Shown in pieces: positions 58,389-62,252 of a DNA stretch of 64,000 nucleotides (the stretch's first letter is position 1; each line of letters starts with the position of its first letter). The notes under the pieces are model-generated. The model was given only the letters and a program-made list of their open reading frames with translations. It had not been told where the DNA came from and searched no databases. Source of the DNA: Candidatus Latescibacterota bacterium (GTDB lineage: Bacteria > Latescibacterota > UBA2968 > GCA-2709665). The stretch lies in assembly GCA_965226795.1 (NCBI GenBank), contig CBDDDZ010000005.1, forward strand, positions 768,001 to 832,000. The letters are read 5' to 3'. Position numbers and translations under genes: made by a program.

Positions 58389-59888
58389 ATGCCCTGGACG
58401 ATAGGACGGTCTGCTGTGTTGCTGATGCTGTTGGGCGCGGCAGGATGCGGCGCCTCGTTGGTGTGCCGAGCATGATCGACAGCTTGGAGGTGCAAGTCCT
58501 CTATCCAGCCTGATGGCGGCGAAGGATTAGCGAAGCGCAAGGGCGTCGTCGCGAGGCGGTGTCTGAAGGAAGCGTGTAGCAAAGTCGCGACCCGATGGAC
58601 AAGAACCGGATATGAGGCCTACCCGGCGGGACGAGCGAGCCAATGATCGCGAAGTCCACAGCCATCAAGGGCCGGGGTGGTAAATGCGGCGGGTATGCGA
58701 TGAAGGCGGTCGGTCTTACCTCGGGAGGTCTGCGTCGTGTCCGGAAAGTCCGGACTGAGCGGTAACGTAAGGGCCGTGATCGCGGCGCAGAAGTCAGCAG
58801 AGGGCATAGTAGCCGGGCGACCGGCGAAGGCCCGAACGATGGACAGGACAAGTAGGACGATACGCTCATGCGTACCATGCGGCAGAAAATCCAGATGGAA
58901 CTGGCCTTGGCGCCGGTGGCGAAGGGTGAAGCCCGGGACGCCGGTGCTGAAGGGACCGAAGTGCGCGTGGCGCGTGTCGACCCCGAACGCCCTGCGGCCC
59001 AAGCTCGGGCTCGCTCCTCTTTCGCCCGGCTTGACCGCATAAATCCATCGAACCGCCGTGTACGGACCCGTACGCACGGTGGTGTGGGAGGGGCGGAGCC
59101 GCAAGGCTCCCCCCTATCCCGATTTGGAACTGTCGAAACGCGGAGACCTGCAGGCGGTAGAGCAGGCGTTGCAACGTGGAAGCAACGTGAATGCCAGGAC
59201 GGTTCAGGGGCACAGCCCGTTGTCGCTTGCGGCCCGGGAGGGCCACCCGGACGTGGTTCGTGCCCTGATTCAGGCCGGCGCGGATCAGGACGCCGTGGCA
59301 TGGTCCTTAAGCACACATCCGCGCCCCTGTGCATTTCGCCACCAGGGGTCCGAACTCACGAGGGAACGTTTCGTGAACGCCGACAGTTCCGGGCCGCAGT
59401 CCAGGTTCATGGCCGAGAGTACGGAAATCGATGTGGTCTGGGTGCTGAAAGATGGGAAAACACCCCTGATGCTCGCCGCCGAGAGGGGTCACCTGGATGT
59501 GGTTGAAGCGCTGGTCGACAACGGTGCCGATGTGCGGTTGACAAGCGGCGGCTATTGGGCGCTCGACACAAAGCCCGATAGGGAGAGCTTCGACTTTCCT
59601 GCTTACCCGAGTGTTCCCCAGCCTCGAGATCCTGGCGACGTCTCTGGCCATTTCCTTCAACATAGCCGCTATTATAGCCATGAATCTTATGGATACGGCG
59701 ACGACGTTGAAACGGAAGACGCCTCTGGCAAACTCTCCGCCCGTGGGTTTCACGGTTATCCCCGGCGGTTTTACGACTCGCCTGACAGAAAGACCGCAAT
59801 GGATCTGGCGTATGAAAATGGTCATTTGGATATCGTCGATTTTCTCCGTAATGCCATCCGGACGAGGCCTGCATCGAGTTCAAGATAG
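58389..59888 (+). CDS. Ankyrin-repeat lipoprotein split by a group II intron (exon 1 58389-58460, exon 2 59124-59888; 278 aa if spliced)
   Basis: SD GGAGGT. Exon 1 MPWTIGRSAVLLMLLGAAG-CGASL joins in frame to LELSKRGDLQAV..., collinear with the paralog at 61575 (GG-CGASLMELSQRGDIQGV). Ankyrin motifs GHSPLSLAAREGH and GKTPLMLAAERGH. Confidence 0.85.
58461..59123 (+). mobile_element. Group II intron, class IIC, with internally deleted RT/maturase ORF (663 nt)
   Basis: 5' GTGTG; IIC-type blocks TCTGAAGGAAGC, CTTACCTCGGGAGGTCT and CAGAAGTCAGCAGA; short domain V ACCGCCGTGTACGGACCCGTACGCACGGTGGT (59052-59083, CGC triad); domain VI with bulged A 59116; 3' end CCCGAT; IEP remnants 58868-59042. Confidence 0.92.
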
Positions 59889-59916
59889 GACCCTGGAGCG
59901 GTCTTCTCCGTTGGAG

Positions 59917-59989
59917 ATTCGGTCTCGTAAAAGCGTTATCTTGCGAGACCGAATTTTGTGGTATGCGCGAGTTGTGTCCATGAAGTTCG
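59917..59989 (+). repeat. Conserved ~70 nt element, copy 1 (hairpin plus conserved tail) after ankyrin gene 1
   Basis: CGGTCTCGTAA-N10-TTGCGAGACCG, then GTATG.G..AGTTGTGTCCAT.A.GTTCG; matches 62284-62353. Confidence 0.75.
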
Positions 59990-60084
59990 TTATTGCAGGT
60001 TTGTTGGTCTAACCATAATACAATGACTTGAGTAAGAAAACGGCATTTCGTGAATTATTTTGGCTCGGCCAACGGAGCACATTG

Positions 60085-60747
60085 ATGAAATTCGTCCTTT
60101 TTTTCTTGTTCCTATACCTCGGTACCTCCCCCGTTTTTGCACAGGAATCGGACGCGGATTCCACGCGGAGTGAACGGCCGACTTTTTCGATGACGCCTAC
60201 GTGAGTAGGCTGACCCGGCGAAGGCGCACCACTCCGTGGGAGTGGCATCCATACGAAATATACACTTTCGGGGCGGTACGTAGATACCTCTATGGACCGA
60301 CCGCAGTGGCGGTTCACGGCTAATTACCGGCTGCATCATCGCCTCCAGGTCGGGGTTGAGCTGAATCCGAAAGCAAAGGAGGCAGGACCTCTTGTAACCC
60401 TGTTTTTGTTTACCGAGACCGAGACGCGGCCTGCGCTCTTCTTGGGCACGAGTTCGGATCGAATCGGTTCGCCGTCGGGCGAGCAGTCCTACTTCGCGAC
60501 CATAAGTAAATATATACCTCGGTTGCGCATTTCCTTTTACGGCAGTTTGAATTATTCGGAATGGGACGGGAAGTTCAATGTTCCCTTTGGCGCGGGGGTC
60601 GAATTGGGCAAAGGCTTTTCATTTCGACCGATGTACGACGGCGACCGGGGGCACGTGATGCTGAATTATTTCGCGGCGCAATACGGTGTCAGTTTGATGT
60701 ACGTGTGGCTCGAAACCATGGGTATTTCGTTTTCTCTCGGGTTTTAG
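60085..60747 (+). CDS. Candidate exported UxxU double-selenocysteine protein with outer-membrane beta-barrel-like C-terminal domain (220 aa with UGA read-through)
   Basis: SD GGAG; signal peptide MKFVLFFLFLYLGTSPVFA-Q; in-frame TGA at 60202 and 60211 (T-U-V-G-U-P); the same frame continues into the 60292-60747 ORF ending ISFSLGF. Confidence 0.7.
60229..60245 (+). promoter_or_regulatory. Putative bacterial SECIS hairpin
   Basis: CCACTCC-GTG-GGAGTGG, a perfect 7 bp stem with a G-initiated loop 22 nt after the second UGA and 31 nt after the first. Confidence 0.55.
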
Positions 60748-60759
60748 TGTGGAGGTTCA

Positions 60760-61443
60760 ATGCGATTTCGCTATCTCTTATTTCTGATTGTTTTGGCCAG
60801 TTCGGCTTCGCTTATGGCCGAAGCTCAGATTCCCGATAAGGCACTCTGTAGTGTCTGTGCATTGAAGGGCGGCGAGACGGAGTTGGAAAAGGTCAAGGCC
60901 CATTCTGAATATGAAGGCAAGGCGTACTATTTCTGTTCTGAAAACTGCAAAAAGGAATTCGACGCAGATCCCGTGGCTTATTTGCCACCGGTTTTCCCAC
61001 GGCCTGCACCAGCCATCGTCGTTGAAACGCTGGAGGGAGGGGACAGGGCGTTGGCGGAATCGAAAGGCAAAGTCGTACTCGTGGATTTCTGGGCGACGTG
61101 GTGCAATCCCTGTCTTGAGACAATGCCCCGGTTGCAGAAACTCTACAGCGCTTATTCCGGCAGGGGTTTTGACATCTGGGGTGTGTCAATAGATGAGGAC
61201 AGAGATCGGGTTCAAAAGATCAGAAAGATGGTGGGCAAACTGGGCATTTCCTATCCCGTCTTTGTCGATGCGAAACAGACGCCTGCCTGGTATCAGTTCA
61301 AGGTGAAAGCGATTCCGGCCATGTATCTTCTCGATAGAGAGAGTCGGATCGTGGCGCAGTGGTCGGGAAAGATAGACTACGATGAAGTGGAGAAGGAAGT
61401 CTTGAGACTTCTTGAAAACGGGGTCGATGTCGAAGGGCCATGA
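60760..61443 (+). CDS. Exported YHS-domain / TlpA-family thioredoxin fusion
   Basis: SD GGAGG; signal peptide; CSVC...YEGKAYYFCSENCKKEFDADP (YHS); GKVVLVDFWATWCNPC, GVSID, AIPAMYLLD (TlpA). Confidence 0.85.
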   Translation: MRFRYLLFLIVLASSASLMAEAQIPDKALCSVCALKGGETELEKVKAHSEYEGKAYYFCSENCKKEFDADPVAYLPPVFPRPAPAIVVETLEGGDRALAESKGKVVLVDFWATWCNPCLETMPRLQKLYSAYSGRGFDIWGVSIDEDRDRVQKIRKMVGKLGISYPVFVDAKQTPAWYQFKVKAIPAMYLLDRESRIVAQWSGKIDYDEVEKEVLRLLENGVDVEGP

Positions 61444-61574
61444 GCGAATTCGTCGCGGAGAATTCCGGCTATGGTATTTGGGGTCGAGATACGATTTGAC
61501 CTAAAAGGCGAAGGTGGATATATTTTCGATTGGAACGAGCAGGATCGATGATCGACTCACAGCGGAGGAGGCCT

Positions 61575-62252
61575 ATGTTTAGAACGATCAAGCCATTTGC
61601 ATTTCTGCTGATCGTGATGAGCGTGGGGGGTTGCGGCGCCTCGTTGATGGAATTGTCGCAGCGCGGCGACATCCAGGGCGTCCAGCGGGCCTTGCTCCGC
61701 GGAAGCGACGTGAACGCCACGACGCGTCACGGGCACACGCCATTGACGCTGGCGGCCAGGGAAGGGCACCTGGAGGTGGTTCAGGCATTGATCCAGGCCG
61801 GTGCGGATCTCGAAGCCAGGGCGTGGAGGTATATATTCGTTGCACAGGCAGAACAATATCCACGCGATCCCGAGTATGTCCGGGAACAGTTTGTCAATGT
61901 CGACAGTTCCGGTCCTCAGTCGCTGTTCATGGCTGAGCGAACAACCCGTGGTGACGCAATCCAGGTGCCGATAGACGGGAAGACAGCGATGATGTTCGCA
62001 GCTGAGATGGGCCACCTGGAAGTTGTTGAAGCGCTCATCCGGAGCGATGCGGACGTAAGTGCAAAGAGCGGCCGTTCCGGCGAACACATTTACAAGCCCA
62101 TCCGCAATCGTTACCAATCTTTTAACCGGCGGCTTAAACGTTCGAACGAAAGAAAAACCGCAATGGACTTTGCAATTGAGAACGGGCATAAGGATATCGT
62201 GAATCTTCTTATAAAGGCCGACCTGCGGTTGCTTGAAGTGAGCAACAGGTAA
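61575..62252 (+). CDS. Ankyrin-repeat lipoprotein (intron-free paralog of 58389-59888)
   Basis: SD GGAGGAGG; lipobox VGG-C; GHTPLTLAAREGH, GKTAMMFAAEMGH, KTAMDFAIENGH. Confidence 0.88.
   Translation: MFRTIKPFAFLLIVMSVGGCGASLMELSQRGDIQGVQRALLRGSDVNATTRHGHTPLTLAAREGHLEVVQALIQAGADLEARAWRYIFVAQAEQYPRDPEYVREQFVNVDSSGPQSLFMAERTTRGDAIQVPIDGKTAMMFAAEMGHLEVVEALIRSDADVSAKSGRSGEHIYKPIRNRYQSFNRRLKRSNERKTAMDFAIENGHKDIVNLLIKADLRLLEVSNR

Follow-up and report, generated by a model that had tools for sequence, protein, structure and literature searches.

Pairs of selenocysteine (Sec, U) residues in the arrangement UxxU are not confined to selenoprotein L, the one example named in the initial annotation of the gene described here, since four or more such families have been predicted in bacteria (PMC13188914, PMC13582414). 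Table 1 of PMC13188914 lists a Prx-like thiol:disulfide oxidoreductase (PF00578), a metal-binding family (NF041115) and an FmdB-family regulator (TIGR02605), while PMC13582414 predicts a further case in the large subunits of Group 4 [NiFeSe] hydrogenases, for which decoding of both UGA codons by a single SECIS element has already been proposed. Sec in outer-membrane proteins likewise has catalogued precedents in the same Table 1 of PMC13188914, namely the GSU2204 family (NF041027, MtrB/PioB-like) and the FCYXU TonB-dependent receptor (NF049945). The bacterial SECIS (bSECIS) model laid out in section 5 of that source comprises a stem of 4-16 bp, a loop of 3-9 nt with G in first or second position, a distance of 16-37 nt from the UGA and a folding energy of at most -7.5 kcal/mol. 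Among proteins related to metal handling, TlpA is described in PMC6669012 as reducing Cys pairs before Cu loading, and a YHS domain is described in PMC4626032 as behaving like a probable copper sensor.

The locus considered here lies on the plus strand of a 64,000-nucleotide stretch from a Candidatus Latescibacterota bacterium (contig CBDDDZ010000005.1), hereafter the window. Positions 60085-60747 hold a single frame of 220 codons, which runs from an ATG at 60085 to a TAG at 60745-60747 and is preceded, 7 nt 5' of the ATG, by a Shine-Dalgarno-like GGAG (60074-60077). Only two internal stops occur, both TGA, at codons 40 (60202-60204) and 43 (60211-60213), in the context T-U-V-G-U-P. Residues 1-19 (60085-60141) were judged by eye to be a putative Sec-type export signal peptide with cleavage between V-F-A and Q; hydrophobic leaders of divergent sequence were seen on inspection at the same place in homologs, and residues 1-30 have low pLDDT in the AlphaFold model. 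The ORF of 151 aa at 60292 is the remnant of this frame under translation table 11, and lacks both the signal peptide and the first strand. The initial annotation had extended that ORF upstream, across two TGAs as its sole interruptions, to the ATG and its Shine-Dalgarno sequence, and the frame stands as it was drawn. Its call to map reads over both TGAs is addressed by contigs of three public runs (X5, 59900-60564; the RNA-library contigs X17, 60086-60404, and X18, 60151-60325), which span both codons with zero differing letters. The agreement is with assembled contigs and not with the reads themselves, and since the best DNA runs could be connected with the source sample, conservation across species is the stronger argument against sequencing error; the RNA-library contigs over the UGA region come from one study, may hold DNA and are not proof of transcription. 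A promoter and terminator scan returned no promoter-like site 5' of the gene on the plus strand.

A protein search returned 887 database relatives at E up to 0.001. Among the 120 relatives listed, 118 are 121-166 aa long and start past the motif, in line with the earlier expectation that standard annotation would cut the gene short. At the DNA level, 131 loci were pooled from GTDB genomes and metagenomes, in sets that overlap and include the window's own locus; one of these sets is the best 80 of 554 matches to the read-through query. TGA stands at both sites in all 126 of the loci that hold the motif region, the other five being cut by contig ends (three) or representing the same broken gene (two). 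The loci are related and were chosen as best matches to the read-through query, so these counts are not independent. The 126 loci collapse to 79 distinct 60-nt segments, over which both TGAs are invariant while wobble positions vary, and protein identity across loci is 51-92%. The segment PT-U-x-G-U-PGEGAPLRGSG is near-invariant, and three further Calditrichota loci read U-x-G-U. Relatives in Armatimonadota carry C-A-G-C in the same register, as evidenced by PTCAGCAGEA in 37 of 38 new matches, and when the Sec columns are masked in an hhalign comparison both still fall over the two Cys, with a probability of 99.9. Homologs therefore show TGA/TGA or, in Armatimonadota, Cys/Cys at codons 40 and 43, one of the outcomes foreseen in the initial annotation, and the N-terminal extension with its putative signal peptide is kept in Sec and Cys forms alike. 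One relative (P0135 / P0297) has C-V-G-W in place of the motif, which may be a CxxU form translated with TGA as Trp. The distribution of the gene and its neighbor is patchy within genera (6 of 14 other genomes of the window's own genus, for example), and decaying copies occur in several related genomes (L016; L025/L055 in G135; L139 in G142; G139). A plasmid collection searched for the family gave zero matches, and among viral contigs none of eight pattern matches was confirmed.

The SECIS-like hairpin is at 60229-60245 (+). It has a 7-bp stem and a G[G/U]G loop at 60236-60238, GUG in this sequence, with an energy of -11.1 kcal/mol. The distance from UGA to loop start is 31 nt for the first codon and 22 nt for the second, which agrees with the bSECIS model, as published in the section cited above, for both codons and bears out the earlier remark that the hairpin lies at the usual distance from each. 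Single-sequence folding gave z-scores of +0.16 to -0.77, not above chance, and a loose genome scan for UGA motifs followed by hairpins returned 218 matches, mostly spurious in this 58% GC background, and was useless as a filter. The hairpin alone is not beyond chance, and its significance comes from conservation. Across the 79 distinct sequences, 73 fold at or below -7.5 kcal/mol, and the full stem and loop are intact in 69, whereas 2000 synonymous resamplings averaged 2.8 and never exceeded 9. Stem codons are restricted in these sequences to those that pairing demands (Leu only CTC or CTT, Arg only CGG or CGT, Ser only AGC or AGT, Gly GGG or GGA), in a gene whose usage is otherwise broad. The covariation check that had been suggested found compensatory changes: two stem pairs covary, one as G-C/A-U (16 times) and the other as C-G/U-A (8 times); 25 cells show a two-sided change, and 0 of 500 shuffles reach the score, with slid registers scoring far lower. 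The sequences are related, and such figures of conservation are not probabilities.

The machinery for Sec insertion, whose presence the initial annotation had wished to see checked, is complete in this genome. The selA and selB genes are over cut-off and next to the gene for tRNA-Sec (selC), and selD, also over cut-off, itself has an in-frame TGA. There is one SelB over cut-off and one clear tRNA-Sec; other matches to RF01852 coincide with ordinary tRNAs, and a low-threshold ARAGORN search for extra Sec or Cys tRNAs gave noise only beyond the canonical ones. No sign of a tRNA-ReC system was found in the genome with the RF01852 model, which could miss a divergent tRNA-ReC. TGA ends 776 of 1515 long ORFs and release factor RF2 (prfB) is over cut-off, which implies that the genome uses table 11. 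Of the 32 genomes in the phylum that match the barrel strongly, 31 have selA and the one exception is 81% complete. This co-occurrence carries little weight, given that selA is present in 131 of the phylum's 168 genomes in any case. In Calditrichota, strong barrel matches were found in 4 of the 86 genomes searched, and all four have selA. Elsewhere in the genome of the window (G000), at least three near-identical frames with an in-frame TGA occur on the plus strand (C2:631474, C3:36900, C4:896293), reading V-D-U-C-G-A-S-S-C-S and with the same hairpin; they look like candidate selenoproteins related to the UGSC family. As judged from sequence comparison, both apparent stops in the 220-codon frame almost certainly encode selenocysteine by way of SelB and tRNA-Sec, and the gene is predicted to specify one exported protein.

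AlphaFold models built with Cys replacing Sec, with pLDDT of 84.3 and 89.3, depict a 12-stranded beta-barrel from residue 59 onward (60259-60744), where pLDDT is above 90. Hydrophobicity alternates in most barrel strands, and the chain ends in Phe, as do 76 of 88 distinct full-length homologs; together with the fold searches, these features agree with the outer-membrane barrel proposed at the outset. VIA-align gives Z 15.5-16.4 to 4rl8, 5o65 and 4pr7, to wit the COG4313 channel 4rl8 (Z 16.1, rmsd 2.6, 164 residues aligned with the barrel model), FapF 5o65 (Z 15.9, rmsd 2.5, 170 aligned) and KdgM 4pr7 (Z 15.5, rmsd 2.6, 152 aligned). These proteins and NanC (2wjr) are also 12-stranded barrels, at identities of 8-14%, and with a tie among the three top matches the fold points to no particular family or substrate. 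At the sequence level, a 108-sequence profile found no match in the PDB at E up to 1, and no Pfam match to PF13557, the family of COG4313 and FapF, was obtained. The mature N-terminal arm (residues 20-58, 60142-60258), placed with the help of conservation, bears the near-invariant Sec segment. The plugged barrels 4rl8 and 5o65, whose plugs are N-terminal, align into the arm and unplugged barrels do not; these alignment ranges, at an arm pLDDT of 52-74, suggest that the arm probably lies in or at the barrel lumen. Conserved lumen-facing residues are mostly Arg, Glu, Asp, Ser and Thr, with one Met and one His, and R64, R76, E92, D125, R126, T139, K142, D185 and H190 are invariant polar residues common to Sec and Cys forms. 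To our knowledge, neither a Sec or Cys pair nor a YHS-TlpA partner occurs with COG4313, FapF or KdgM. We regard it as close to certain that the predicted protein is an exported double-Sec outer-membrane barrel (60085-60747), as frame, homolog conservation and fold would have it, with U-x-x-U on a short arm before the 12 strands.

A gene left out of the first reading proves to be part of the unit. Only 12 nt downstream of the barrel gene, 60760-61443 (+) encodes an exported protein of 227 aa in which a YHS/TRASH domain (60847-60990; PF04945, E 4.9e-11, 42.9 bits against a cut-off of 30.3) precedes a TlpA-type thioredoxin domain with WCNPC (61003-61353; PF00578, E 3.3e-18, which like PF08534 is also over cut-off). 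The YHS/TRASH domain, with its four Cys ligands (C30, C33, C59, C63), is putatively metal-binding. Over the 88 loci with the partner, the four-Cys pattern was found 84 times and the TlpA CxxC 80 times, never with U. This partner adjoins the barrel gene in 88 of 109 loci and is absent from 15 with room downstream, the other 6 being too short. Within the phylum the barrel is present in 32 genomes and the partner in 30, with 29 genomes shared, and in G135 and G142 the two genes are broken together. Since other neighbors vary between loci, the unit amounts to a cassette of two genes. Barrel and partner are separated by an unrelated gene in one close relative (L006:5811-7175). Putting the hairpin and the gene order together, we strongly infer that one downstream SECIS serves both UGAs and that the barrel and the adjacent YHS/TRASH-TlpA protein form one unit, both of which we hold to be very likely.

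The domains of the partner also occur in one chain with Cys-form barrels. Those of Armatimonadota have YHS repeats ahead of a CxxC barrel (for example P0163 and P0274), with no fused thioredoxin. In Acidobacteriota, TlpA is fused to a CxxC barrel whose CxxC is 16 residues before strand 1, as in the window protein; masked hhalign did not place this CxxC over the Sec columns. Two proteins from clusters named as Terriglobia TlpA, P0351 and P0352, are fusions of TlpA, a His-rich linker, CxxC and barrel, and belong to the same family. All of the fusions found, in what was a weak search, are Cys-form, with no Sec-form fusion among them. Such relatives are named for the fused domain only, as 'YHS domain-containing' or 'TlpA disulfide reductase family'.

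Upstream of the barrel, 11 distinct loci (L101, L109, L110, L115, L116, L119, L121, L127, L128, L131 and L132) have an exported ORF rich in Cys and about 105 aa long, in most cases with L-R-N at its end. Three of them were scanned, with zero Pfam or NCBIfam matches; these ORFs are reminiscent of leader peptides of copper operons, for example CruR (PMC9426467). Two distant barrels, L136:3911-4564 and L137:4241-4891, start C-G-P-S-C-P-x-C (CxxxCxxC); one comes directly after a CusA/CzcA RND pump and the other has a YHS gene on one side and a porin gene on the other. These two are remote, with a very long branch in a quick tree and an hhalign probability of 89.5 over the barrel part only, and selA was not found in their genomes, which are incomplete. 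In the close family, neither a metal transporter nor a mer gene is a recurrent neighbor. The window's genome encodes a DsbD/CcdA domain protein. On either side of the cassette in the window are paralogous ankyrin-repeat genes (58389-59888 and 61530-62252, both +), and related ankyrin genes lie near the cassette in 7 loci of close relatives. The upstream one, a lipoprotein-like ankyrin gene, is interrupted by an ORF-less group II intron of about 663 nt (58461-59123, +; Rfam RF02001, RF01998, RF00029), with flanking exon frames that are compatible.

The explanation that we favor joins a double-Sec barrel, a single SECIS, the YHS-TlpA unit and a path for soft metals, and we put its probability as a whole at roughly 55%. 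Under its mechanism, for which the odds seem to us about even, the arm would reach into the barrel lumen from the periplasmic side, and the TlpA domain, fed by DsbD/CcdA, would reduce the diselenide to a diselenol. The two selenolates could then bind a soft metal passing the pore, Cu(I) most likely, or Hg or Ag, and exchange the ion with the four-Cys YHS/TRASH domain; selenium would offer tighter, pH-independent binding than the Cys forms of lineages such as Armatimonadota. In favor of this path are the partner, which is adjacent, co-occurs and degenerates together with the barrel, the fusion of YHS or TlpA domains to Cys-form barrels, and the position of the distant CxxxCxxC barrels beside a CusA/CzcA pump and a YHS gene. 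Against it, the conserved lumen residues are mostly charged or polar, unlike the Met/His-rich lining of copper channels, the partner is missing from 15 of 109 loci despite room for it, there is no steady metal-transporter neighbor, and those metal-efflux neighbors that do occur belong to the remote barrels. In its widest form the proposal, which we advance tentatively, is of an undescribed envelope system in several phyla, in which an outer-membrane channel with a diselenide/diselenol pore switch, a dedicated TlpA that reduces it from the periplasm and a YHS chaperone that gives or takes soft metal would carry metal or electrons across the outer membrane by a redox-gated route independent of TonB, one SECIS serving for both Sec.

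The main rival to a metal path is a redox conduit or redox gate built from the same selenoprotein barrel. Electrons from TlpA would pass to the pore diselenide, which would reduce extracellular oxidants or disulfides (polysulfide, selenite, thiol-disulfides) or gate the pore by redox state, and YHS would be a structural zinc or sensor module. Section 7 of PMC13188914 treats CxxC-type spacing with Sec as typical of redox sites. In the TlpA domain the CxxC does not vary, and Acidobacteriota have this domain fused to the barrel; both the polar or charged lumen, which is not Met/His-rich, and the lack of recurrent metal-resistance neighbors in the close family would suit this reading. It fits poorly with the Armatimonadota forms, where it is YHS repeats and not a thioredoxin that are fused, with YHS cysteines conserved as much as those of TlpA, and with the Cys-rich ORFs upstream in 11 distinct loci, such ORFs being reminiscent of metal-operon leaders; we consider it unlikely, if worth keeping in view. 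An ordinary channel for small solutes or peptides, of the COG4313, FapF or KdgM type, with the diselenide as a plug staple and the partner as a folding or repair catalyst, would match the closest folds, which are solute or peptide channels with N-terminal plugs, and the conserved charged lumen residues common to Sec and Cys forms. This appears improbable, as it leaves the conserved or fused YHS domains unexplained and would spend two Sec on a purely structural bond, which is not the usual role of Sec.

Other rivals concern the decoding itself. One or both UGAs might be read as Cys, by a system of the tRNA-ReC/SelC* type, or as another residue, to give CxxU, UxxC or CxxC. Such tRNA-ReC is enriched in genomes with UxxU hydrogenases, according to PMC13582414; decoding of two UGAs 9 nt apart by one SECIS is only a prediction, and C-V-G-W in P0135 could be a CxxU intermediate. 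Yet the genome has one SelB over cut-off and one tRNA-Sec next to selAB, and both UGAs fall inside the 16-37 nt range, which leaves this reading with little probability. Least probable by far is that the TGAs are true stops in a split gene or pseudogene, sequencing errors, or Trp codons under code 4. Its support would come from the two remaining listed database proteins, P0019 and P0063, which read W-x-x-W, and from a few broken homologs (L016, L025, L139), but DNA matching P0063 (L102) has TGA at both sites, Cys is aligned in homologs, and the 151-aa remnant would have neither signal peptide nor first strand. We rejected a pseudogene on the invariance of both TGAs over the 79 distinct sequences, sequencing error on cross-species conservation together with the agreeing contigs, and code 4 or 25 on TGA as a frequent terminator and the presence of RF2.

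The initial annotation, which recognized no described family of this kind, agrees with the sources compared. The barrel family is absent from the 119 prokaryotic selenoprotein families in Table 1 of PMC13188914 (2026), which includes the families of Haft and Tolstoy 2025 with NCBIfam accessions, and from the passages compared of PMC9312934, PMC12013277 and PMC13326102; no description of it was found in the literature searched. At E up to 1, the barrel protein is matched by no family of NCBIfam (release June 2026) or of Pfam. The 15 database relatives scanned and the two distant barrels likewise gave none, except for YHS domains where these are fused and for weak matches below cut-off. Deng et al. 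2026 (Cell Rep) reportedly present unvalidated novel candidates, among which the barrel family could be listed. As UxxU and outer-membrane Sec each have precedent, the kind of recoding is known, and what is new, as far as the comparison went, is the family and probably also the envelope module. The gene adds a large selenoprotein family, at 887 proteins with E up to 0.001, nearly all of the listed ones cut short by gene callers, from phyla that include Latescibacterota, Poribacteria and Calditrichota, and it puts two Sec into a small pore of the outer membrane, a location missing from the catalogued Sec sites. In its compactness the gene is also suited, as a natural case, to testing if a single bacterial SECIS is able to recode a pair of UGAs at a spacing of nine bases, a point raised for UxxU hydrogenases too, and matched Cys forms and natural fusions allow direct comparisons of selenium with sulfur. 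If metal or redox gating is true, outer-membrane passage would be subject to a new form of control.

Set beside the catalogued UxxU families, the window protein shares two Sec three residues apart, Cys homologs and one 3' SECIS-like hairpin with G in the loop, and all are computational predictions. Those families are thioredoxin-fold, small metal-binding or hydrogenase proteins, whereas the window protein is predicted to be a barrel of the outer membrane that bears the motif on an N-terminal arm, and the HMMs PF00578, NF041115 and TIGR02605 find no match in it. Like NF041027 and NF049945 it would place Sec in an exported beta-barrel, but members of those families have one Sec each and neither HMM matches the window protein, a 12-stranded barrel of 162 residues with two Sec; proteins of the MtrB/PioB family and TonB-dependent receptors are large barrels. 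The Cys-form relatives (P0163 and P0274 in Armatimonadota, P0352 and P0355 in Terriglobia) have the same barrel family and motif position, with Cys in place of Sec, and fuse domains that form a separate gene in the window. Bradyrhizobium TlpA, which acts with ScoI and CoxB, offers a functional analogy in that a periplasmic TlpA keeps a Cys pair reduced for copper, as described in PMC6669012. Its targets are copper proteins anchored in the inner membrane, whereas here the presumed target would be two Sec residues borne by a barrel of the outer membrane, and the predicted reductase, unlike that of the analogy, carries a YHS/TRASH domain.
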